DNA from: Methanobacteriota archaeon
GTDB lineage: Archaea > Thermoplasmatota > Thermoplasmata > RBG-16-68-12
Assembly: GCA_020029475.1 (NCBI GenBank)
Contig: JAIBJG010000005.1
Coordinates: 13,169-77,168 of the forward strand
DNA length: 64,000 nucleotides
Reading direction: 5' to 3'
This document shows positions 5,275 through 51,192 of this stretch, one piece after another. The notes beneath the pieces were generated by a model. The model did no database searches. It saw only the letters and a list, made by a program, of their open reading frames with translations, and was not told the DNA's origin. Numbering within the stretch: position 1 is the stretch's first letter; each line of letters begins with the position of its first letter. Both the position numbers and the translations under genes were made by a program.

Positions 5275-8200
5275 TTGACTCCGACTGTCGGGGGTTCTCC
5301 CGCTCGCCGACGCGGCGAACGGTACGTTGCCGTCCTTGCCCTGATCGTCCTCCTCGCGCCAGGCCTCCAGGGGGCGAGACCTTCCGCGGCCGCGGGCGGG
5401 ACTTCCTCGATCATGGCGGGCCCTCCAACGACGATTGTCCTGCAGCCGGACGGGGCGAATGGGACGGACACGGCGATCGAGCGCTCGACCCCCGCATGGA
5501 ACTTCGGGGACAGTGCGACCCTCTGGGTCGGACCCGATCCCGGGACCGGGGGACTCGCCCGCTCCCTTCTGCGGTTTGACCTGAGCGCACTGCCGCCCGC
5601 GACAGACGTCGTCAACGCGTCCCTCGAACTGTTCGAGACCGCGGGGGGCATGGGGTCCGTGGACGTTCGCCGCGCGTCCGCACCGTGGACGGAAGGGGAT
5701 GGAGACCGCGCCTGGAGTCGGGTCCCAATCCTGGTCCGCGAGACCGCGGGAGTCCGCCGCGTGCGGGAGCCCGTTGAGGTCGACCTCGATTTTGCGCTCG
5801 GCTCCATCGGCGACCCCGCGCGCGACCTCCGGGTCTGGCTCGACAGGAGGGAGGTCCCTTCGCAGGTGTATGCGACCCGATACAACGGAACCGGGGTGGC
5901 CTCAGCACGCGTCGTATTCGGGGCGAGCCTCCTGCCTTTCGAGAACCAGACGTTCGTGATCACGTACAGCACGAACGAGACGGTCGTCCCCCCATACCGC
6001 GGGAAGGGAATGGGGTCGGCGGCCCTCTGGACCTCCCCACCGGTCGGGTCCGGCGCCTCCGGGGTGAGCGTCGCCGATGTGGACGGCGACGGGGAGCTCG
6101 ATGTCGTGTACGGTACCGCGACCGGGTACGTGCACGACCTCTACCCGAACGGGACGACCCGATGGTCGACCCGCCTCTCCACGACGAACTCTGTGCCGTA
6201 CACGCCCCAGCTCGCCGATCTCGATGGGGACGGGACGATCGACATCGTGGCGATTACGAACGACCCCGCCCTTGTCCGCCTGAACGCGACGGGGAGCGTG
6301 CAATGGACCGCCCCGATGTCGGTTCCGGACCTCCCGTTGTCAACGCCAACCCTTCTGGACGTGGACGGGGACGGCGTCCTCGACATCCTCCTAGGCCGGA
6401 GGTCGAAGGCGGTCGACGCGTTCAGCGGAACGGACGGGGCGTTCATCCGGACGTTCCCCGCAGGGGACTGGGCGTACACCGCCAGCATCTTCGATCTCGA
6501 TGGAGACGGCGTCGGCGAGATATTCTTCGCGAGCGACGACCGGAACGTCCACACGTACGACGTGTCCGGAACACCCCTGTGGACGAACGCGCCCGGGAAC
6601 GCCTCGTTTCTCGAGAGCTCGGTCGCGATCGGGGACGTGAACGGGGACGGGTTCGCGGACGTCGTCGCGGGGGACGACCTGAACATCGGCGAGCAGTTCG
6701 CGCTGAACGCGACGGACGGGAGCGTGCTCTGGTCCGTGGCCGTCCCGGACTACCGGGAAGGCGGTCAGACCTTGGCGGACCTCGATGGAGACGGCCGGCT
6801 CGAGGTCGTACTCGGCCTCCATGTCGGTACCGTTCGCGCTCTCAGCGGCGCGAACGGAACGACCCTCTGGTCCTATCCCGGAGGGACGAGCCAGGCAGTC
6901 GCGCCCGCAATCGTCGACGTCACGAACGACGGGGCCCCGGAGATCCTGTACATGGACGACGGGACGACGATCCGAGTCCTGAACGGAACAGGGAGGCTCG
7001 TCCACTCCTGGAACATCGTTGCCAACAACCCTGGGCTTCGGACCCTGACGCAACACCCCATGGCCACACCGGCAGTCGTGGATCTCGACGGGGATGGCAC
7101 GCTCGAGGTCGTCGTGCCGACGGGAGGCGGAGTGCAGGCGTTCGGAACCGGCGGACTCGGGCGCGACTGGCGCACGTACGGGTACAACTGGAACCACACG
7201 CACCTCGCGGGGGACGGGACCTCCCCGGACGGAGCGCCGCTCCTCCAGGCGGGACCGGGAACCCCGGTCGAGGTGCCCGCCTCCGGGGCCTCCTGGGTGT
7301 ATCGCGATGGCGTGACGCGGTGGCTCTCGCCGGGCGGGGACGCCCTTGCGCCCGAGGCCTCCGCCCCCGCGCAGCCCGCATGGACCGCATGGAACGTCCG
7401 GGCCCTCGTCCGCGACTGGGTCACGGGCGCCTTCCCGAACGTGGGACTCGTCCTGGCGGATTCGGACGAAAGTACAGGAGCGAGCCACGGATACTCCAGT
7501 TCGGACTCGCCGAACGCCTCTGCGCGGCCCCGACTCGTGATTACGTACACCCTCCCGAGTACCGATCCCACCCCGCGGATCGTCGCGGCGATCCCGGCCA
7601 TCGTGCGAACGGAGGATAGCCCCCCGGTCGCCGTGAACCTCTCCGCATTCGCCGCAGACGACGATACCCCCCCCGGCCTCCTGCGGTGGAATGTAAGCGG
7701 GTATGATCCCGGGGTCGTCCGGATCACGGGGACGGGCGCGCTGGGGAGCCAAGTCCTCACGTTCTACCCGCAGAAGGACGCCTGGGGAAGCCGTCGGGTC
7801 ACGTATTGGCTGACGGACCCAGAGGGGCACATCGCGTCCGCGGAGTCTTGGCTCAACATCACCCCCGTGAACGACCCGCCCACGTTCGACCCGCCCGCGA
7901 CGTTCGTGGTACGATACAACGCGTCGTACGCGTTCGACTTCGGTCCGTATATCGGGGACGTGGACAACCCGCGGTCGGAACTTTCGCTGGCCACGGACGA
8001 TCCCGTCCACACCTCCGTCTCTGGATTCACGGTCACGTTCCTGTACCCGCGGACCTACCTCGACCAATGGGCGTTCGTCGGAATCGTGGCGAGCGACGTC
8101 GAGGACTCCGTGGGGAAGGTCGTCGCGGTGCGGATCACGACCGACACCCCGCCGGCGCTCGTGCGAAGCCTCCCGGACCTCACGATGTTCGAGGGCCAGT

Positions 8201-24169: not shown

Positions 24170-24478
24170 TCACTCCGGAGAGATGAGGACGCGGCCGTCC
24201 TCCACCTTCACCGGGTACCGCCGCAGTCGCGCGAGCGGATTCAGGAGGTTCTGCCCGGAGCGCACGTCATACTGCCATCCGTGCCACGGGCACGTCACGA
24301 CCTCGTCGTCGAGCTCGCCCTCCCCGACGGGCCCACCGCGGTGGAGGCACGTGTTGCTCACCGCGTAGAACGAGCCGCCGACGTTGAAGAGGGCGACGAT
24401 GTGGCCCGCCACGACGACGACCTTTGACGTCCCTGGAGGGACCTCCGACGCGTCCGCGACGGGGACGAAGTCCGCCAT
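24170..24478 (-). CDS. Rieske [2Fe-2S] domain ferredoxin (NirD-like small Rieske protein)
   Basis: 102 aa with CLHRGGPV...CPWHGWQYD (CxH...CxxH Rieske ligands). Confidence 0.8.
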   Translation of the reverse strand: MADFVPVADASEVPPGTSKVVVVAGHIVALFNVGGSFYAVSNTCLHRGGPVGEGELDDEVVTCPWHGWQYDVRSGQNLLNPLARLRRYPVKVEDGRVLISPE

Positions 24479-27016: not shown

Positions 27017-27238
27017 ATGCTCGCTCGCGTGCGCCGGTGGGGGAATAGCCTAGCAGTCCGCATCCGGAAGGCGGACGCAGACATGGCGGGAGTTTCCGAA
27101 GGGGACATCGTCCGGATCACGATCGTCGGAATCGCGAGAGGAAGCGGCCTCGACCTCTCCACCCTTCCGACGTTTGCCGACCCCGACCCGAGGGTGAGCG
27201 TGGACCACGACCGGTACGTGTACGGTCCGAGGTCGTGA
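27017..27238 (+). CDS. AbrB/MazE/SpoVT-family (swapped-hairpin) small DNA-binding protein, antitoxin-like (73 aa)
   Basis: MLARVRRWGNSLAVRIRKADADMAGVSEGDIVRITIVG... matches the vrkwGnSlavriPk...eGd.v motif. It is hidden in the last 74 codons of a spurious 611-aa ORF. Its stop TGA (27236-27238) overlaps a GTG (27235) at the head of the methyltransferase ORF. Confidence 0.55.
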   Translation: MLARVRRWGNSLAVRIRKADADMAGVSEGDIVRITIVGIARGSGLDLSTLPTFADPDPRVSVDHDRYVYGPRS

Positions 27239-27843
27239 CCCCGGAAGGGAAAGGCGCAAGCTCTCGGTATCCCTCGTGGGGAGTGATGCCCCTCGTCCTT
27301 GGCCAGGCGCGTACGCGTCGATTCTTCGACTGGCTCGCGCCGTCGTACGACATCGTGAACGCGATCATCTTCCGTCCGGAATGGCGCGCGAAGGTCCGGG
27401 CGGCGCTCCTCCCCGGGCGAGTGCTCGACATCGGGGTAGGGACGGGGTTCACGAGCGCAGACGTGGCCGGAGCCGTCGGAATCGACCTGTCCTCCGAAAT
27501 GGTTTCGCGGGCGAGGGGGTATCTCGGAGATCTCGTCCTCGCGGACGCGATGAGCACGCCCTTTCGCGCAGGGAGCTTCTCGACGATCGTGTGCGCGGGT
27601 TCCTTCTACTACCTGCCCGACCCCCTCGCGGCGCTGCGGGGGTTCCACAGGCTCCTGCGGGATGGCGGGCGTGTCGTAATGCTCGGACCGGAGGCGTGGT
27701 TCCTGAGGCCCCTCGTGAGGACCTTCGTCCGGCGAGATTACGAGGCCCTCGCGGGGGAGACGGACTTCGACCTCGTCCAGTACGAATCCCTCCGCGGGGT
27801 CGCATCCCTCGTCGTCATGGAGAAACAGAACGTGTTGCCCTAG
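27235..27843 (+). CDS. class I SAM-dependent methyltransferase (Methyltransf_11/UbiE-COQ5-like)
   Basis: VLDIGVGTGF (motif I), DLVLADAMSTPF, GGRVVML. The start is either GTG 27235 (GTGA-coupled to the AbrB-like gene) or ATG 27286 (MPLVLGQ). Confidence 0.75.
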   Translation: MTPEGKGASSRYPSWGVMPLVLGQARTRRFFDWLAPSYDIVNAIIFRPEWRAKVRAALLPGRVLDIGVGTGFTSADVAGAVGIDLSSEMVSRARGYLGDLVLADAMSTPFRAGSFSTIVCAGSFYYLPDPLAALRGFHRLLRDGGRVVMLGPEAWFLRPLVRTFVRRDYEALAGETDFDLVQYESLRGVASLVVMEKQNVLP

Positions 27844-28095: not shown

Positions 28096-28359
28096 GTGGC
28101 CACGATCGCCCGAATCCTGAAGCGCGCCGGAGGTCCGTTCATCCTGATGGGGGTCGGGTTCTTCCTGGCATTCGCGGGCCTTGCGGGGGACTACTACCAG
28201 CACGAGATCGCCGGGTTCTCACCCGCCCTCGAGAGCTTCTTCGCGCCCGTCCACGTGATGATCTTCGCTGGGATTCTCGTGGCGGCGCTCGGGTTCCTCT
28301 GGGGACTGCTCCGGGTATCGTTCACGCTTGGACCGGGCCCGAGGGACTGGGCAGACTAG
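28096..28359 (+). CDS. small hypothetical membrane protein (2 TM)
   Basis: 87 aa, ILMGVGFFLAFAGLAG...VHVMIFAGILVAALGFLWGLL. GTG start. Confidence 0.45.
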   Translation: MATIARILKRAGGPFILMGVGFFLAFAGLAGDYYQHEIAGFSPALESFFAPVHVMIFAGILVAALGFLWGLLRVSFTLGPGPRDWAD

Positions 28360-28538
28360 CCCCCGGTCGGGCGCGCCTCCCCGACGCTCCCCTTCTTCGA
28401 CGCGCACGAGCGGCAGCGGTGGACCTTCGCGTGCTCCTCGCGGACCTCGGGAGGCTTCTGGCACCACAGCGGGTACCGCTCCTGCGTCCCGCACACGACG
28501 CATTCGATTGTGAGGGCGTCCGGCCCCGTGGTCCTCAC
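28356..28538 (-). CDS. small Cys-rich zinc-ribbon protein (~60 aa) translationally coupled to the upstream diiron-protein gene
   Basis: VRTTGPDALTIECVVCGTQERYPLWCQKPPEVREEHAKVHRCRSCASKKG... is C-x2-C-x9-C-x15-C-x2-C. The GTG at 28538 overlaps the TGA (28537-28535) of the upstream gene as GTGA. The track's ATG at 28568 lies inside that gene. Confidence 0.4.
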   Translation of the reverse strand: MRTTGPDALTIECVVCGTQERYPLWCQKPPEVREEHAKVHRCRSCASKKGSVGEARPTGG

Positions 28539-29950
28539 CACTTCTTCGCGAGGACCGGGTCGCCCCATTTCGGGTTGAACAGAAACTCCTCCTTCACGAA
28601 CCGGAAGTGGCGGGAGTTCATGTAGTCCTTGGGGAGCACGGTGTGCAGGTACTCGATGTACCGCTCCCGGTCGACAGGCCTACCGCCCTCCGTGAGGAGG
28701 TTCCCGTTCACGTCGTACGGGAGGTAGACGTAGCCGACTCCGGAGAAGCCCGAGCCCGGGAGCATGTAGTCCCCGTACTCCGCGAGCCCGCGGATCCGGA
28801 AGAACCGCCGGTGGGGCAGGCGGAGGAGATCGTCGGGCCCCATGCCGTCGACGCGCTCCCCGCCCTCGAGACGGGCGAGGGCCCGCTTCGCCTCCTCCCG
28901 CGGGGCCTTCAGCTTCGCGCCTAGGACTGCGAGGTTGATGTCCCGCACCTTCCCCGCCACCTCGTCGAGGTAGATCCTCTGGGCCTCGTCGTTCCCCAGC
29001 GTCTTGAACAGGCCCTTCACCGCGGCCCCGCCAAGCTCGGAGCCGAACATCTCGAGGCCCCGCGGGGACCACATGTTCAGGGACCGCTGGACGTCGTCGA
29101 GCCCGAAGTTCCCGCCATCGAGCGCGCCCGCGACCGCGATCGCCTTCAGGAGCTTCTCCCCCGCCGCGAGGTGGTACGACTCCTCGAGCCATCGCATGTA
29201 CGGCATGCTCAGGGCCATCGGCCCGTACAGGAAGTGGTGCTGCATCTCGAGCTGGTACTTCCCCACCCGGTCGATCAGGGCGAGGAACGTCGACGTGTCC
29301 AGGAGGCTCTGGAACTCGATGTTGAAGGCGTCGAGGACGTGCTCCCCGGGCTTCATCGCGAACAGCTCCTCGAGGATCTCCGTGGCCCAATGGCGGCCCC
29401 ACCGGGGAGCATCCCACCCGCCATCGAGGGTGAGGACGCCCGCCATCTGGTAGTGGTGGCGGAGCTCCTCCACGCACACACGCTTCTTCGAGAAGCTGAT
29501 GGACTCGAGGGTGTGACCGCCCGGCTGGGTGCGGTGGATCCCCTCGACGATCTCCTTGTCCAGGCCGGTGAGAGAGCCGGAGTCGAGCTTCTCGTACACC
29601 ATCCGGTGCTGCTGGATGGAGCCGAGTTCCGTGGACGCCTGCGCGCGGATGATCTTCAGGGCCGTGTTGAAGCGGTTGTCGTCCAGGTCCTCCGCCTTCC
29701 AGACGCGGCCGGAGAGGTCCGCCGTGGCGGGGGACGCGCCGACGACCTTCGAGGCGAACGAGGCGAAGGCGTCGGGCTTCGCGAAGACCGTAGTGACCTG
29801 GGGGATCGGGACCTCCGGATAGAAGCGGTTCCAGCTCGGGGCGTCGAGGACGTCCGGCATCTCCGGGAAGTACCTCTCCCGCCACGCGACCCCCTCTTCG
29901 TGCCACTTCTTCGGCAGAGGTTCGAGCATGAAGCCGTCGAGGAAGGGCAT
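28535..29950 (-). CDS. ferritin-like diiron-carboxylate protein, BoxB-like (benzoyl-CoA oxygenase component B family) candidate
   Basis: 471 aa (BoxB is ~473). Two ExxH motifs ~95 residues apart (EELRHH at ~161-166, EESYH at ~256-260), with acidic residues ~25-30 positions upstream of each, as in class I diiron oxygenases. Family call is by pattern only. Confidence 0.55.
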   Translation of the reverse strand: MPFLDGFMLEPLPKKWHEEGVAWRERYFPEMPDVLDAPSWNRFYPEVPIPQVTTVFAKPDAFASFASKVVGASPATADLSGRVWKAEDLDDNRFNTALKIIRAQASTELGSIQQHRMVYEKLDSGSLTGLDKEIVEGIHRTQPGGHTLESISFSKKRVCVEELRHHYQMAGVLTLDGGWDAPRWGRHWATEILEELFAMKPGEHVLDAFNIEFQSLLDTSTFLALIDRVGKYQLEMQHHFLYGPMALSMPYMRWLEESYHLAAGEKLLKAIAVAGALDGGNFGLDDVQRSLNMWSPRGLEMFGSELGGAAVKGLFKTLGNDEAQRIYLDEVAGKVRDINLAVLGAKLKAPREEAKRALARLEGGERVDGMGPDDLLRLPHRRFFRIRGLAEYGDYMLPGSGFSGVGYVYLPYDVNGNLLTEGGRPVDRERYIEYLHTVLPKDYMNSRHFRFVKEEFLFNPKWGDPVLAKKW

Positions 29951-36154: not shown

Positions 36155-37429
36155 TTACAGGGTCGCCTTGTCGAACATCTCTGGCTTCCCGCCCGGTGGG
36201 CGGGTCGCGTCGATCCCCAGTTTCGCCGTAATCCCGTCGCTTGCGCTCGGATCGATCGAGGAGCCCCGCACTCCTTGGAGGATCACAAGCCCGCGGTCCG
36301 CTTGGAACCTCGTCGCGATCGCCCACTCCACGTCCCGGTCGTCGAACACGTCGATGTCCTCGTCCACGATGACGACCTGTTTCATCGAGGTGTGCGCGCC
36401 GAAGGCCGCCAGGATCGCGTTCTTCGCGTCCCCCGGATGCTGCTTCCGGATTGACACGACGCCGTGGAGCCACGCGCACCCACCCTCCGTCAGCCGCACC
36501 GCTTTCACCTTCGGGACCGCGCGGGACACGGCCTGGTGGATGATCGGCTCCCGCGGCATCCCCATGAACATGAAGTGCTCGTCCAACCCGCCGACGATGA
36601 TGTGGAAAATCGGGTCGTCCCGGTGGTACACGCGGTCCACGACGAGGACGGGCTCCTCCCGCACGCGGTCATACGTCCGCACCGCGTCGACGAAGGGACC
36701 CTCCGCGTGGCGCTCGTTGATCAACCGGCCCTCGAAGACGTACTCCGCGTCCGCGGGGACCGTGAGGCCGTCCTTGATCTTCACGACGTCCACGGGCTGG
36801 CCGAGGGTCCGCCGCTTCAGGGCGGACGCGATCCGCGTCTCATCCACGCCGTACTCCACGGAGGTCCCGCCGCCGATTAGGAGCCAAGGGTCGAGCCCCA
36901 CGCAGATCGCGACCTTCAGCTCCTGGCCCGCCTTCAGCGCCTCCTGGTACATGTGATGGAGGTGGCGGGGGACGATCCGGCACACTCCCCGGTTCGGACC
37001 GAGGACCTGGATGCGATGGAACGAAAGGTTCCGATGCCCCTCCCACTCCGCGACCCACACCCCCGCGGTCACGTACCGTCCCGCGTCCCCGGGGTAGAGC
37101 TTCGGGATCGGACTCTCGAGGAGGTCCACGTCCGTCGTCTCGTTCGCCTGGAACCCCGCCTTCTCAACAGCGTGGAAGTCCTCCGGGTGGGACATCGAGA
37201 GCATCAGGTGCCCGAGGAGCGCGTCCCGGGTCGTGTTCATCGCGGAAGCGACGCGGTCTCTCGTGGACCATAGGTTCCCGACCGCCTCGTGGCCGTCAAG
37301 GTCTGCGAAGTGGACGGGGCTCCGCGGGTGCTTCAGCAGGATGCGCGTGCACTCCAGCTCCCGGCTCGTCCGCTCCTTGATCGTGACGACATCGTCGGAG
37401 AATCTCTCGAGCCACGGACGGACCGCCAT
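36155..37429 (-). CDS. UbiD-family (prFMN-dependent) decarboxylase
   Basis: 424 aa; MAVRPWLERF...GPNRGVCRI...LKVAICVGLDP... matches the UbiD/3-octaprenyl-4-hydroxybenzoate carboxy-lyase fold. Confidence 0.8.
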   Translation of the reverse strand: MAVRPWLERFSDDVVTIKERTSRELECTRILLKHPRSPVHFADLDGHEAVGNLWSTRDRVASAMNTTRDALLGHLMLSMSHPEDFHAVEKAGFQANETTDVDLLESPIPKLYPGDAGRYVTAGVWVAEWEGHRNLSFHRIQVLGPNRGVCRIVPRHLHHMYQEALKAGQELKVAICVGLDPWLLIGGGTSVEYGVDETRIASALKRRTLGQPVDVVKIKDGLTVPADAEYVFEGRLINERHAEGPFVDAVRTYDRVREEPVLVVDRVYHRDDPIFHIIVGGLDEHFMFMGMPREPIIHQAVSRAVPKVKAVRLTEGGCAWLHGVVSIRKQHPGDAKNAILAAFGAHTSMKQVVIVDEDIDVFDDRDVEWAIATRFQADRGLVILQGVRGSSIDPSASDGITAKLGIDATRPPGGKPEMFDKATL

Positions 37430-48064: not shown

Positions 48065-49006
48065 GTGCCGTTGGAGGAGGGCGCCGCCTCCGTCCTCAGG
48101 ACGAGCGCGGGCCTCAAGGTGGGCGAGAAGGTCCTCATCGTCGCGGACCCCGAGCGGATGGGAGTCGGTCGCGCGTTCTTCTACGCGGCCGCGGCCCTCG
48201 GCTGCGACCCCGTCCTCTCCCTGATCCGCACCCGGGAGGCGCCCGGACGGGAGCCCCCGGACCTCCTGTCCGCCGCGATGCTCGATGCGGACGTCGTCCT
48301 CCTCGCGACCGTGCACTCGATGACCCACACCCACGCGCGGCGGGCCGCGAACCGCGCGGGCGCCCGCGTCGTCTCGATGCCCGGGGCCTCCGAGGAAGAC
48401 CTCGAGGGCGGGGCCCTCACCGCGGACCACGGGGTCCTCGTGCAGACGATGCGCCGCCTCCAGCGGCGGCTCCGCGGCGCGGACGAGGTCCACATCGTGA
48501 CCCCGGCGGGCACGGATGTCACCCTGAGCACTCGGGGCCGGGATTGGAATTTCTCGGACACCGGGGTCGCGACCCGGAAGGGCGACGTCACGACCCTCCC
48601 GGCCGGGGAGATCTTCGTCTCCCCCGTCGAGGGCACCGCGGAGGGCCGCCTCGTCGCGGACGCGTTCTTCCACGAGTCCCTCCACACCCCCGCCACGGTC
48701 CTCCTGAAGGAGGGGCACGCGACGAAGGTCACCGGGGCGGAGGCCGCCGTCCTCGAGATGAACCGGGGCGGGAAGGAGGGACGGAACGTCGCGAAGCTCG
48801 GTGTCGGCCTGAACCCGAGGGCCCGGGCCGCCGCGTCCCTCCCGGAGGCAGAGAAGGCGCTTGGGGCCGTCCACGTCGTCTTCGGGGACAGCGTGCCGTA
48901 CGGCGGGAAGGTCGCGTGCGGGGTCCGGGTCGACGCGATCCTCACTGGGGCGACCGTGGAGGTGGACGACGCGCCGATCGTGGAGAAGGGGAAGCTCCCG
49001 CCCTAG
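48065..49006 (+). CDS. aminopeptidase, peptidase M29 (AmpS/aminopeptidase T)-like
   Basis: 313 aa. The C-terminal half GEIFVSPVEGTAEGRLVADAFF...LGVGLNPRA...AVHVVFGDSVPYGGKVACGVRVDAIL resembles M29 signature regions (GEIFT.P, GIGTNP, HIAlG...GG.N.S..H.D). Family call is tentative. Confidence 0.6.
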   Translation: MPLEEGAASVLRTSAGLKVGEKVLIVADPERMGVGRAFFYAAAALGCDPVLSLIRTREAPGREPPDLLSAAMLDADVVLLATVHSMTHTHARRAANRAGARVVSMPGASEEDLEGGALTADHGVLVQTMRRLQRRLRGADEVHIVTPAGTDVTLSTRGRDWNFSDTGVATRKGDVTTLPAGEIFVSPVEGTAEGRLVADAFFHESLHTPATVLLKEGHATKVTGAEAAVLEMNRGGKEGRNVAKLGVGLNPRARAAASLPEAEKALGAVHVVFGDSVPYGGKVACGVRVDAILTGATVEVDDAPIVEKGKLPP

Positions 49007-51192
49007 CGGTGGTGGAGGACGGAGTAGTAACGGTCCTGCTTGAACGTCTTCTCGAGGCCGCCGACGATCGGGAGCTGGGTCCCGCACTTCTTGCACTTGT
49101 TGTGCTTGTCGAGGTACCAGCCCGTGATGTCGAACTGGTACCGCCGGATCGCGATCGCGCCGCACCCCGGGCAGTACGTGTGCTCGAGCTTGTGCCCGCC
49201 GACGTTCCCGATGTACACGTACTTCAGGCCCGCCGCCGTCGCGACGTCGCAGTGCTTCTCGAGGGTCTCCACGGGGGTCCACGGGAACTCGTTCATCTTG
49301 TAATCCGGGTGGAACCGGAGGAAGTGGATCGGGGTGTCGGGGCCGAGCTCGTCGTACACGAACTTCGAGAGCTTCTTCGCCGCCTCGAGGTCGTCCCCGA
49401 CTTGGGGCACGATGAGGTCCGTGATCTCGATGTGGGTCGCCTTCGTGTCCCGGATCCTCTGGATCGTGTCGAAGATCGGGTCCGCGTTCGGGATCCCGAT
49501 GTACCGCTGGACGAACTTTGTCTCCCCGGACCCCTTGAAGTCCACCGTGATGCAGTCCAGGAACTTCGGCATCTCCGCGACCGCCTCCGGGGTGTCGTAG
49601 CCGTTCGAGACAAAGATGTTCATGAGCCCCGCCTTCCGGGCCGCCATCCCGATGTCCCGGGCGAACTCCATGAAGATCGTGGGCTGGTTGTACGTGTACG
49701 CGAGGCCCTGGCACCCCTGCTCCAGGGTCATGTTGACGACGTCCTGGGGCTCGACCTCGATCCCTTCTACCTTCCGTCTCTGACTAATGTCGAAGTTCTG
49801 GCAGTACCTGCAGTTGTGGACGACGACTCCGCTCGCGACGTAGTTGTGGTTAGGGAGGCACTCGAAGCTGAAGACCGCCTCGAGCCGGTCTGTGCGCGAG
49901 GCTGAATGAATGGGCAGCCACATTTTCTTGTTCTTACGAAGGACCGGGGCAATCGCCTCGTCGATGAGGTCCCTAACCGCAGCTTCGTGACGGAAGAGAT
50001 CTCGGCTCCAAATTCGGACGACCCGCCACCCATTCGCCTCGAGCGTGGCATCGCGGACGCGATCCGACTCCCGTACTTTTTCGGACTTGACGTGCCAGAA
50101 ACCATCGATCTCTAGGTCGACCTTCATTTCCGGCAGGGCTGCGTCCGCAACATAGTACTTCCGAGAATTTGCAAGTCGATGGTCAAGCTCGATACGGTAC
50201 TCTTTCTCATACGAAATTCCCATGGAGTCCAGGACGCTGTAGAGCCGCTCCTCTCCACCTGATGGATGGCGGTGACGCCACAGTTCTAGCCGTTCGAGAT
50301 TCCGATGCCATCCGTGGGTGGGGTCCGCTAGATACCGTGCACGGCTCGTCGCAAGGGCGCGTCTCGCGATCTCTGGGTTCTTCATTGGATTTCGCGATTG
50401 CATTCGCTCGGACCGAGCGAGTCTTTCCGCCTCGGAATACTCCGCGTCCTTCGTGTAACAGAGTCCACGATGGCGGTTCCACGCTGCGAGCCCAGTAACC
50501 GTTTCTCCGCAGACGCCGCAAGTGAAGTCCGCCGAGGCGATGGTCTCTGCCCGACCGGAACGCCAGGAAGAGGTGTTTTGGTACCAGACTTTGAGGATCT
50601 CATCACCCGCGGCAAGATTCTGAACGAGCGTCCAACCGCGCCGTGTGAGGACGGGGTGTTCCGCAGTTGCCTCAAGAATCCCCCCGCCGCGGGTCCCAGT
50701 TCTGACCCTCCAGATCCAGTCCAACCGCCGCCCCACATGGGTCACCACATTCGGCAGGATCTGGAAGCCTGCATCCACGTTGTACGACCACACGCGGTCT
50801 CCAGGGCCGACCGTCTCTACAGGCTTGGTCGTCCCGTCCGCCAGCAGAATCGGCGTCCCAGCGGGATGGCAAAGCCAGTTACACCCGGTCGTCGCCACGC
50901 TGAAGATTTTCGAGCCAGGTCGATAATGCATCACCGGTTTCTTCTCGATCGGGTCGACGTGACCCGTGATTACGCGCCCGTAAACGTAGAGCCAGAGCTT
51001 CCCGTCGTGGACGCCCCGTACACCGCAGAGGCCGACCTGGCCTTCTCCGATCTTGCAGTATCGCGCGCACGCCGTGCACACAATCTTGTTCGTGCCCTCG
51101 ACGGGTTTCCACAGCTCTCCGACCTTACCCGTCGCATGGCCCGGGGGCTCTCGGACGTCCACGGGCTCGATCAAGTCCGCCTTCGTGACCAT
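49003..51192 (-). CDS. AmmeMemoRadiSam-system-type radical SAM enzyme (AmrS/PflA-like) interrupted by an intein
   Basis: Exteins: N-terminal Cys cluster KIVCTACARYCKIGEGQVGLCGVR; radical-SAM motif split as ...TTGCNWL|[intein]|CRYCQNFDIS; C-terminal zinc ribbon HTYCPGCGAIA...HNKCKKCGTQL. The exteins total ~376 aa, the normal length for this family. Confidence 0.85.
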   Translation of the reverse strand: MVTKADLIEPVDVREPPGHATGKVGELWKPVEGTNKIVCTACARYCKIGEGQVGLCGVRGVHDGKLWLYVYGRVITGHVDPIEKKPVMHYRPGSKIFSVATTGCNWLCHPAGTPILLADGTTKPVETVGPGDRVWSYNVDAGFQILPNVVTHVGRRLDWIWRVRTGTRGGGILEATAEHPVLTRRGWTLVQNLAAGDEILKVWYQNTSSWRSGRAETIASADFTCGVCGETVTGLAAWNRHRGLCYTKDAEYSEAERLARSERMQSRNPMKNPEIARRALATSRARYLADPTHGWHRNLERLELWRHRHPSGGEERLYSVLDSMGISYEKEYRIELDHRLANSRKYYVADAALPEMKVDLEIDGFWHVKSEKVRESDRVRDATLEANGWRVVRIWSRDLFRHEAAVRDLIDEAIAPVLRKNKKMWLPIHSASRTDRLEAVFSFECLPNHNYVASGVVVHNCRYCQNFDISQRRKVEGIEVEPQDVVNMTLEQGCQGLAYTYNQPTIFMEFARDIGMAARKAGLMNIFVSNGYDTPEAVAEMPKFLDCITVDFKGSGETKFVQRYIGIPNADPIFDTIQRIRDTKATHIEITDLIVPQVGDDLEAAKKLSKFVYDELGPDTPIHFLRFHPDYKMNEFPWTPVETLEKHCDVATAAGLKYVYIGNVGGHKLEHTYCPGCGAIAIRRYQFDITGWYLDKHNKCKKCGTQLPIVGGLEKTFKQDRYYSVLHHR
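49813..50871 (-). mobile_element. intein (353 aa): Hint domain plus zinc-finger plus Vsr/DUF559-like PD-(D/E)xK endonuclease module
   Basis: Block A CHPAGTPILLADGTTKPVETVGPGDRV; block B TAEHPVLT; blocks F/G FSFECLPNHNYVASGVVVHN followed by +1 Cys. Insert contains CGVCGETVTGLAAWNRHRGLC and ...SRNPMKNPE...KVDLEIDGFWHVKSEKVRESDRVRDATLEANGWRVVRIWSRDLF (Vsr-like FWHxH / RD...GW..VR.W). Confidence 0.8.

Follow-up and report, generated by a model that had tools for sequence, protein, structure and literature searches.

The window analysed here, a stretch of 64,000 nucleotides from a soil archaeon of the Thermoplasmata, encodes an uncharacterised, putatively iron-dependent oxygenase of 471 aa, a remote relative of BoxB of bacteria, and, directly 3' of it, a 60-aa protein rich in Cys and His. 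The two are probably a soluble diiron oxygenase of the BoxB/PaaA lineage, in a form belonging to Thermoplasmata, and a real, dispensable metal-binding companion: the enzyme is of a known kind, in a new variant with an optional accessory. Judged from the sequences, both the ligand pattern of the large protein and the small open reading frame exceed chance, since all ligand residues of the former are invariant in 46 homologues and purifying selection on the latter shows in no frame but its own.

The oxygenase and its predicted active site

The oxygenase gene and the parts of it that encode the predicted diiron site are the following.

28535..29950, minus strand: gene for the 471-aa BoxB-like, ferritin-fold diiron oxygenase (open reading frame and homology)
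29618..29641, minus strand: helix B codons, with Q104, T107, E108 (predicted Fe ligand, BoxB E120) and S111 (alignment to 3PER residues 106-128, hhalign)
29456..29467, minus strand: first ExxH motif, with E162 (predicted bridging ligand, BoxB E150) and H165 (BoxB H153) (alignment)
29270..29326, minus strand: helix E region, with F209 and F222 (BoxB F193 and F206) and D227 (predicted Fe ligand, BoxB D211) (alignment)
29171..29182, minus strand: second ExxH motif, with E257 (BoxB E240) and H260 (BoxB H243) (alignment)

The two ExxH motifs reported in the initial annotation are present as EELRHH (residues 161-166) and EESYH (residues 256-260), with 95 residues from E162 to E257. A carboxylate had also been placed 25-30 residues before each motif: this is true of the second half-site, where D227 lies thirty residues before E257, but in the first the carboxylate is E108, 54 residues upstream, so assigned because it is homologous to BoxB E120. 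The residues originally seen were probably E133 and E136, contained within an insertion of about 20 residues, common to the family, between the two helices bearing E108 and E162 (hhalign, alignment to BoxB).

All six diiron ligands of BoxB (Glu120, Glu150, His153, Asp211, Glu240 and His243), which are given together with the second-shell residues in PMC5489048, are matched in the window protein. In the benzoyl-CoA pocket, Gln116, Thr119, Ser123, Phe193 and Phe206 are kept as Q104, T107, S111, F209 and F222, Q104 being the counterpart of the Gln that anchors the thioester in BoxB by a hydrogen bond to benzoyl-CoA, while two positions are changed (Phe203 to T219 and Thr210 to I226). Q104, T107, E108, S111, E162, H165, F209, F222, D227, E257 and H260 are invariant in 46 out of 46 homologues.

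The expectation of a ferritin-like diiron protein, with two E/D...ExxH half-sites on a four-helix bundle, is thus borne out, BoxB being the closest solved relative. The further suggestion of a BoxB arrangement and length is only partly correct: the protein is a distant full-length homologue (19% identity; 471 aa, against 481 aa in the 3PER chain), but not a BoxB orthologue, because the TIGR03225 profile scores 27 bits (E 1.8e-6, residues 157-271 only) against a curated cutoff of 499.1 bits. The PF05138 (PaaA_PaaC) profile reaches 15.5 bits (E 0.01), with a gathering threshold of 28.5 bits, and a precomputed PF05138 match is found in a minority of homologues. By these sequence comparisons, the family is a separate orthologous group in Thermoplasmata, distinct from BoxB itself. 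Given the low similarity to BoxB, the two pocket changes and the family-specific insertions, its substrate need not be aromatic, nor even a CoA ester.

Distribution and gene neighbourhoods of the family

The family is compact and has been observed in Thermoplasmata of soil and sediment only, with identities of 65-94% among the listed members and thousands of metagenomic copies; a search of the literature on BoxB in Thermoplasmata returned nothing relevant. The neighbourhoods of the oxygenase gene differ strongly from clade to clade. In other loci, the gene most often found downstream is that of a crotonase: in the largest clade a crotonase-family gene lies 54-154 nt after the oxygenase gene and is followed by a second one, and an acyl-CoA ligase is encoded 4-6.5 kb upstream. 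The partner of BoxB is the crotonase-fold enzyme BoxC (PMC4498308).

Two further genes of the window are relevant here.

24170..24478, minus strand: 102-aa ferredoxin of the Rieske [2Fe-2S] type, encoded some 4 kb from the oxygenase gene (Pfam Rieske, E 2e-20)
28096..28359, plus strand: predicted membrane protein of 87 aa, encoded by a convergent gene whose stop overlaps that of the small gene by 4 nt (CTAG)

As previously noticed, no BoxA-type reductase or CoA ligase is encoded near the oxygenase, and a crotonase is absent too, as judged from the genes within 10 kb and from probes across the 64-kb window. Neither BoxA nor BoxC is found among the annotated genes within 10 kb of the oxygenase gene; probes derived from other clades (crotonases, acyl-CoA ligase, acyl-CoA dehydrogenase, FNR-like reductase, saccharopine dehydrogenase) have no match in the window, where no CoA-metabolism genes are found, and PaaABC(E) partner genes are missing both from the annotated 10-kb surroundings and from the loci of relatives. 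The window does contain a class I SAM methyltransferase gene (27235-27843) and, 6 kb away from the oxygenase, a UbiD-family gene.

The Rieske ferredoxin is the only neighbour probe from other clades with a match in the window. Its gene is syntenic in three related loci (L004, L006 and L008), and in three others (L001, L033 and L053) a Rieske gene, 43-45% identical, adjoins an FNR-like reductase gene, 2.3-4.9 kb away from that of the oxygenase; in the largest clade no Rieske gene is found within 8 kb. The ferredoxin is a possible electron donor of the oxygenase. The 87-aa membrane-protein gene is syntenic in the clade of the window only; 18 out of 21 metagenome loci contain it. As it is kept in locus L058, from which the small Cys-rich gene has been deleted, it probably does not depend on the latter.

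The small Cys-rich gene

The small gene and its junction with the oxygenase gene are located as follows.

28356..28538, minus strand: gene for the 60-aa Cys/His-rich mini-protein (codons 28359-28538, stop 28356-28358; open frame, conservation, selection)
28535..28538, minus strand: GTGA stop/start overlap between the oxygenase TGA (28535-28537) and the GTG of the small gene (28536-28538) (sequence)

The junction reads TGG TGA, the oxygenase stop overlapping the GTG of an open reading frame of 60 aa, as originally described, and the C-x2-C-x9-C-x15-C-x2-C spacing is exact, with Cys at positions 13, 16, 26, 42 and 45. The same gene of 60 aa is also called in the NCBI annotation of contig JAHKKK010000007.1 (GCA_020027675.1). 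A 70-aa version, starting from an ATG at 28568, was rejected, its N-terminal extension being unconserved and out of frame in relatives.

On the evidence of its sequence conservation, the small reading frame is a real gene. C13, C16, C26, H36, H40, C42 and C45 are invariant in sequences down to 49% identity; dN/dS is 0.13-0.51 in its own frame and above 1 in the others; GC3 is 0.89; and the core frame persists through three junction layouts, despite indels at the junction. It is extremely unlikely that we are dealing with a chance frame in GC-rich DNA, or with a functionless decaying remnant: spurious reading frames do abound in high-GC genomes, and the gene was skipped by gene callers in three loci (L004, L057 and L059) and lost in several lineages, but the selection confined to one frame, the GC3 value, the seven invariant Cys and His and the frame preserved through indels all argue against it.

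Conservation of both the small reading frame and the GTGA overlap had been named as a check. The frame is conserved, but GTGA is only one of several junction layouts, being found in 11 of the 21 metagenome loci and in loci L005 and L007, i.e. in about half of the loci carrying the small gene; in other loci the gene starts 6-90 nt past the oxygenase stop, in other frames. A fusion of the two proteins by readthrough or frameshift, considered for two loci where the small frame is in frame after the TGA (L004 and L006), was rejected because close relatives place the small frame in all three relative frames.

The small protein had been proposed as a private partner of the oxygenase, and an HMM scan of all loci and a metagenome scan agree with this, locating its gene only directly 3' of the oxygenase gene. 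The metagenome scan, for which the small protein was the sole seed, yielded 21 real matches, in all of which the 3' end of an oxygenase gene lies 0-50 nt upstream; 8 further loci were reached via the oxygenase. That the gene is a genus-level orphan, as suggested by a single-sequence search returning 10 close clusters only, was rejected after HMM, six-frame and DNA-pattern scans, the figure being an undercount because the small gene is often uncalled.

The small gene is missing from 43 of the 51 loci of the oxygenase family. It has been deleted in locus L058, where the oxygenase orthologue is 84% identical, and survives as a decayed remnant in L060; a rough NJ tree, to be taken as indicative only, does not group the two clades bearing it as sisters. 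In 17 loci of the clades without the small gene, no non-homologous Cys-rich reading frames were found downstream of the oxygenase. This pattern of absence, deletion and decay contradicts the notion of an obligate half of a two-component oxygenase. Given repeated losses of the companion from a family whose enzymes remain 65-94% identical, the small protein is most likely a dispensable accessory, for example a stabilising, assembly or regulatory subunit of the zinc-finger type, rather than an obligatory electron carrier.

The AF2 model of the small protein (pLDDT 68) features a CxxC on a beta-hairpin and a second CxxC at the N-terminus of a helix, in a treble-clef-like arrangement. A Foldseek search with this model gave no significant match, the best non-significant neighbours being PHD zinc fingers. 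When 13 members were compared to Pfam, a stray PF18073 match appeared in one (E 1.3) and sub-threshold matches to Zn_ribbon_SprT (E 0.0039) in three. No rubredoxin match was found at E up to 0.1, and the second knuckle is C-R-x-C-A, not CPxCG; the model is made of a hairpin knuckle and a helix, and nothing supports the rubredoxin-like character initially suggested. The two CxxC pairs, the additional Cys and the two His indicate, in sequence and model, a putative metal-binding protein.

Proposed mechanism and alternative explanations

We propose that the four-helix bundle holds two irons through E108, E162, H165, D227, E257 and H260, in an enzyme that keeps the substrate-anchoring Gln of BoxB along with most of the residues positioning the benzoyl ring. 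It may bind an aryl- or acyl-CoA thioester, a CoA ester being suggested by the synteny with crotonases and CoA ligase in the largest clade and by the conserved Gln, and would use O2 and two electrons from a generic, unlinked donor for the epoxidation or hydroxylation of the thioester. The small gene would be co-transcribed with the oxygenase gene, and its translation in this genome would most likely start by termination-reinitiation at the overlapping GTGA; its product would serve as an accessory metal-binding companion of the oxygenase.

FeS4 modules are known to feed diiron sites in rubrerythrin and in the AlkB/rubredoxin pair, and the two invariant CxxC pairs, the exclusive and tight linkage of the two genes and the failure to find a BoxA-like reductase nearby might all suggest that the small protein acts as an electron carrier of the rubredoxin-like Fe(Cys)4 type, forming with the diiron protein a self-contained two-component oxygenase in a split rubrerythrin layout. 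We consider this unlikely: the 43 loci without the small gene, with the deletion in L058 and the decay in L060, imply that the enzyme works without the small protein, and the missing Pfam match, the C-R-x-C-A knuckle, the second CxxC set at a helix N-terminus in the model and the PHD zinc fingers as nearest, if non-significant, structural neighbours do not speak for a rubredoxin. It is similarly doubtful, and a little more so, that the mini-protein docks on the enzyme and relays electrons or delivers metal, the two forming a split rubrerythrin-like pair with no BoxA-type reductase, and that the family is the first archaeal enzyme of O2-dependent aryl-CoA epoxidation.

As to the large protein, its best structural and profile match is BoxB, some homologues are named benzoyl-CoA epoxidase subunit B by JGI, and the retained ligands and five pocket residues, together with a nearly equal length, might point to a genuine benzoyl-CoA 2,3-epoxidase of aerobic benzoate degradation. 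There is little probability of this, considering the 27 bits against a cutoff of 499, the 19% identity, the two changed pocket residues and the insertion of about 20 residues beside the active site; moreover, boxA, boxC and benzoate-CoA ligase genes were not found nearby, and the crotonases adjacent in other clades are of a generic, 262-aa enoyl-CoA hydratase type, whereas BoxC is a two-domain enzyme (PMC4498308). A different substrate, namely a non-CoA aromatic or isoprenoid-quinone-type intermediate, hydroxylated by the enzyme and then methylated by the neighbouring SAM methyltransferase following a Coq7-like logic, is suggested by the recurrence near the gene, in several clades, of class I SAM methyltransferases, not clearly orthologous to each other (in the window, immediately upstream in 18 clade-B loci, and in L042, L057 and L060), by a UbiA prenyltransferase directly upstream in L025 and by the UbiD-family gene of the window. 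Such methyltransferases are, however, common, and the clade-B and window enzymes share only a weak generic likeness (32.7% over 98 residues); no Coq7-type similarity was detected in the 471-aa protein, and the conserved Gln, which in BoxB bonds benzoyl-CoA, and the crotonase and CoA-ligase synteny of the largest clade favour CoA esters, so that we regard this alternative, too, as improbable. Finally, the ferritin-like fold is common to Dps, ferritin and rubrerythrin, which are among the lower-ranked matches of the 471-aa protein, and a non-oxygenase role, such as iron storage or peroxide detoxification, might be imagined, though its likelihood is very small. The reading that we prefer is that of a BoxB/PaaA-lineage oxygenase with an optional companion.

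Comparison with known systems

Two diiron epoxidases of aromatic CoA esters have been characterised, BoxB and PaaA (PMC5489048). Both are bacterial, while the window family is distinct, strongly conserved and known from soil and sediment Thermoplasmata alone; if oxidation of aryl- or acyl-CoA is true, abundant uncultured soil archaea would have an O2-dependent way of using aromatic or unusual acyl substrates. The small gene is a clean case of a micro-protein restricted to certain lineages and linked to a single enzyme, of a sort that protein databases miss, as the three loci where it is uncalled (L004, L057 and L059) illustrate.

Compared to BoxB, the benzoyl-CoA 2,3-epoxidase of Azoarcus evansii (PDB 3PER/3PM5; TIGR03225), the window protein is archaeal, is extended by about 20 residues at each of two insertions, one separating helices B and C and one near residue 400, and lacks BoxA, BoxC and BoxD partners; in some lineages its family has the 60-aa Cys-rich companion, which BoxB does not. 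PaaA, the catalytic subunit of the phenylacetyl-CoA 1,2-epoxidase PaaABCE (PF05138; PDB 3PVR/3PW1), is about 300 aa long and depends on PaaB, PaaC and PaaE, for which no genes were found within 10 kb of the window gene. SSO1313 of Sulfolobus solfataricus (PDB 4MUD), also archaeal, is an uncharacterised PaaC/PaaA-like protein, 18% identical to the window protein; with its approximately 220-235 aa it is limited to the bundle core, without the N- and C-terminal regions common to BoxB and the window protein.

For the small protein, a parallel is offered by PaaD and by assembly proteins of the DmpK/MmoD type, likewise small proteins encoded in oxygenase operons and lying outside the catalytic core. 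PaaD is needed in vivo but not in vitro (PMC4498308), a behaviour that fits a dispensable accessory role for the small protein; PaaD is, however, a DUF59/SufT-like protein of about 170 aa, unrelated to the small protein in sequence and fold. Archaeal zinc-finger micro-proteins form a further class for comparison. Among small accessory proteins, the window type stands apart as a module of 46-60 aa with four Cys, an additional Cys and two His, and no family match. The succession of a ferritin-like diiron protein and a CxxC...CxxC module recalls rubrerythrin and its rubredoxin domain, but in the window each part has a gene of its own, the module has a spacing of 25 residues, CPxCG is lacking and the model is not rubredoxin-like.

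Locus and gene junction

The window is overall an ordinary archaeal chromosome, with genes for PFOR, FBPase, TIM, RFC and a class-I (Glu/Gln-type) aminoacyl-tRNA synthetase; a 729-aa radical SAM protein at 49003-51192 (-), with Pfam matches to Intein_splicing, MTES_1575/DUF559 and Radical_SAM, appears to be interrupted by an intein with an endonuclease-like domain. The oxygenase gene lies directly downstream of an MMPL transporter gene.

Features of the oxygenase locus in the window
28535-29950, - strand: oxygenase ORF, 471 aa (ORF listing)
28356-28538, - strand: small ORF in another frame, ending at 28356 (ORF listing)
28096-28359, + strand: predicted membrane protein, 87 aa, converging on the small gene, the two stops overlapping in CTAG
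24170-24478, - strand: Rieske-type ferredoxin, 102 aa, some 4 kb away from the oxygenase gene, with conserved synteny in the window's clade

The initial annotation had described a 471-aa diiron protein resembling BoxB, the bacterial benzoyl-CoA epoxidase, coupled to a small cysteine-rich partner. The ORF listing and the homologue alignment bear out the large ORF with its EELRHH (residues 161-166) and EESYH (256-260) motifs, and both the GTGA overlap and the cysteine pattern are present in the window sequence: the junction reads ...AAG AAG TGG TGA, the GTG at 28536-28538 being made up of the final G of the Trp codon and the TG of the stop, and the resulting 60-aa product carries Cys 13, 16, 26, 42 and 45 (C-x2-C-x9-C-x15-C-x2-C). 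The same 60-aa gene is called in the NCBI annotation of a soil Thermoplasmata MAG (GCA_020027675.1, JAHKKK010000007.1).

A BoxB-like active site in a Thermoplasmata family

Sequence comparison places the predicted oxygenase in a new, Thermoplasmata-restricted branch of the BoxB/PaaA diiron acyl-CoA oxygenases. Matches to PF05138 (15.5 bits, cutoff 28.5), TIGR03225 (BoxB; 27 bits, cutoff 499.1) and 3PER (E 1.7e-4, residues 157-269) are weak. An hhalign comparison of the family alignment with BoxB-proximal sequences gave a probability of 99.8% (E 3.7e-28, 333 columns) over residues 15-442, so that homology extends beyond the bundle to both terminal regions. The BoxB iron ligands Glu120, Glu150, His153, Asp211, Glu240 and His243 (PMC5489048) align with E108, E162, H165, D227, E257 and H260; Gln116, which contacts benzoyl-CoA, corresponds to Q104, and the pocket residues Thr119, Ser123, Phe193 and Phe206 to T107, S111, F209 and F222. 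None of these eleven positions varies among 46 homologues; two further pocket residues are changed (Phe203 to T219, Thr210 to I226). The predicted active site is BoxB-like, yet the protein is not a BoxB orthologue. The expectation of a carboxylate 25-30 residues before each ExxH motif fails at the first half-site, because some 20 extra residues (roughly 122-143) are inserted between the E108 and E162 helices.

A word-indexed search yielded 2,466 relatives. Most of the best 120 are close to 470 aa in length and 66-94% identical, and all source-given organism names among these 120 are Thermoplasmata, Thermoplasmatota or "Methanobacteriota". An exhaustive search of 1.84 billion cluster representatives returned just 161 matches at E <= 0.001, few of them full-length distant relatives. 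Two full-length distant relatives, P0132 and P0133, about 40% identical, are extended at the C-terminus by a segment containing the conserved motif ...CPCS(K/R)(S/A)VRWV..., perhaps a fused tail that binds metal or a partner. Fifty genome loci with the oxygenase all come from Thermoplasmata MAGs, many from soil or sediment projects. Some members are labelled "benzoyl-CoA epoxidase subunit B" or "phenylacetyl-CoA epoxidase catalytic subunit" by JGI, the NCBI label being hypothetical, and a literature search for the family found no paper. MAG VBMI01 (isolate EA_19) holds two copies from different clades (L006 at 86% and L020 at 71% identity to the window protein), either true paralogues or the product of a mixed bin. 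All other genomes showed a single copy, except for two fragments in DATEUA01, which may be one split gene.

The small gene: distribution, coding status and role

When all loci were translated in six frames and scanned with an HMM, the small gene turned up solely directly 3' of the oxygenase gene. Where an enzyme-anchored locus extends 250 nt or more past the oxygenase gene (51 loci), it is present in 8 cases and absent from 43, its carriers being the window's clade, with an enzyme identity of 81-94%, and another clade (L057, L059) in which identity is about 74%. A rough NJ tree does not make the two clades sisters, suggesting that the gene was gained long ago and then lost repeatedly. In L058 (enzyme 84% identical) it is deleted, 27 bp being left between the oxygenase and the convergent gene; in L060 a decayed 12-residue remnant (7413-7510; MKSLAIRCVVSGR...), its second Cys changed to Ser and the remainder lost, sits between the oxygenase gene and a gene for a 68-aa membrane protein. 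The converse scan of metagenome contigs, seeded by the small protein alone, gave 23 loci: in 21 the oxygenase 3' end lies 0-50 nt upstream, and the other two, which match in part only (22 residues) and have no neighbouring oxygenase gene, were discounted. Together the scans indicate a companion exclusive to the oxygenase yet dispensable for it. As for the conservation check proposed initially, the GTGA layout recurs in 11 of the 21 metagenome carriers, other layouts being found elsewhere, while the ORF itself is missing from most enzyme-anchored loci.

Small genes uncalled in public annotation
L004: 8288-8461
L057: 11493-11633
L059: 7505-7648

Given such missing calls, protein-database searches understate its distribution (10 clusters by protein search versus 29 loci by DNA-level scans).

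Junctions between the oxygenase gene and the small gene
Window and L005: GTGA overlap
L007: frame as in the window, ATG 9 nt further on
L004 and L006: TTG 6 nt past the stop, in the enzyme's own frame
L008: third frame
L057: GTG 17 nt past the stop
L059: ATG about 90 nt past the stop

Six close loci share the conserved core TI.C.VCG...YP.WCQK...H..VHRCR.CA, and pairwise dN/dS is 0.13-0.51 in the gene's own frame, the other two frames giving 1.0-3.4 or being interrupted by stops; GC3 is 0.89. C13, C16, C26, H36, H40, C42 and C45 remain unchanged even in sequences as little as 49% identical. The core frame is kept through indels that shift it relative to the oxygenase gene, which points to selection on the peptide independent of the upstream gene and disfavours programmed recoding joining the two ORFs. 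The small gene is a genuine micro-protein gene specific to this oxygenase; its product is predicted to bind metal and is probably co-translated with the enzyme.

Pfam and NCBIfam searches with the small protein gave no match, zinc-ribbon similarity staying below threshold (Zn_ribbon_SprT, E 0.0039, 3 of 13 members). An AF2 model (pLDDT 68) has a predicted treble-clef-like layout, in which the first CxxC sits at a beta-hairpin turn, residues 30-39 form a helix and a further helix, 43-49, carries the second CxxC at its N-terminus; Foldseek found nothing significant for it, the top matches being PHD fingers (E >= 0.6). Unlike rubredoxin, with its CPxCG signature, the second knuckle reads C-R-x-C-A. 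Being optional, the gene speaks against the novel two-component oxygenase or redox pair first envisaged, and argues for an accessory role.

Gene neighbourhoods, substrate and electron donor

The context of the oxygenase gene differs by clade.

Gene context by clade
Window's clade: oxygenase, small gene, convergent 87-aa membrane protein, class I methyltransferase, aldehyde dehydrogenase, Rieske ferredoxin
Largest clade: SAM methyltransferase, oxygenase, 262-aa crotonase 54-154 nt downstream, second crotonase
Third clade: GcvH/TusA-like gene, oxygenase, saccharopine-dehydrogenase-like gene
Deeper clades: unrelated neighbours including UbiA, DAO-family oxidoreductase, methyltransferases, HAD, AhpC and LigB

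The 87-aa membrane protein, with a conserved GDYYQHEIAGFSP stretch and no Pfam or NCBIfam match, is limited to the window's clade and kept where the small gene is deleted. The aldehyde dehydrogenase best matches L-glutamate gamma-semialdehyde dehydrogenase, under that family's cutoff. A UbiD-family decarboxylase, UbiE-like and other class I methyltransferases, an O-methyltransferase and a UbiA prenyltransferase occur near the oxygenase across clades, without clear orthology (window 36155-37429 (-) and 27235-27843 (+); L025 6908-7927; L042 6212-7243 and 3077-4570), hinting at aromatic or quinone-type chemistry.

No reductase like BoxA, the BoxB reductase, or PaaE adjoins the oxygenase gene in any locus with annotated neighbours. 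The sole recurrent donor candidate is the Rieske ferredoxin: in the third clade (L001 409-1440, L033, L053) a Rieske gene 43-45% identical to the window's, with an FNR-like reductase gene beside it, lies at a distance of 2.3-4.9 kb from the oxygenase. The largest clade lacks a Rieske gene near the oxygenase gene, and the ferredoxin's proximity elsewhere may mark it as the missing electron donor or be coincidental.

As to the substrate, the recurrent methyltransferases keep alive a rival, biosynthetic role in which the oxygenase would hydroxylate and a methyltransferase then methylate. A CoA ester is supported by the largest clade, where genes for a long-chain-type acyl-CoA ligase and yet another, third crotonase are found 4-7 kb upstream and an acyl-CoA dehydrogenase is sometimes present: its oxygenase-crotonase pairing echoes that of BoxB with its dihydrolase partner BoxC, a crotonase-fold protein which co-purifies with it (PMC4498308).
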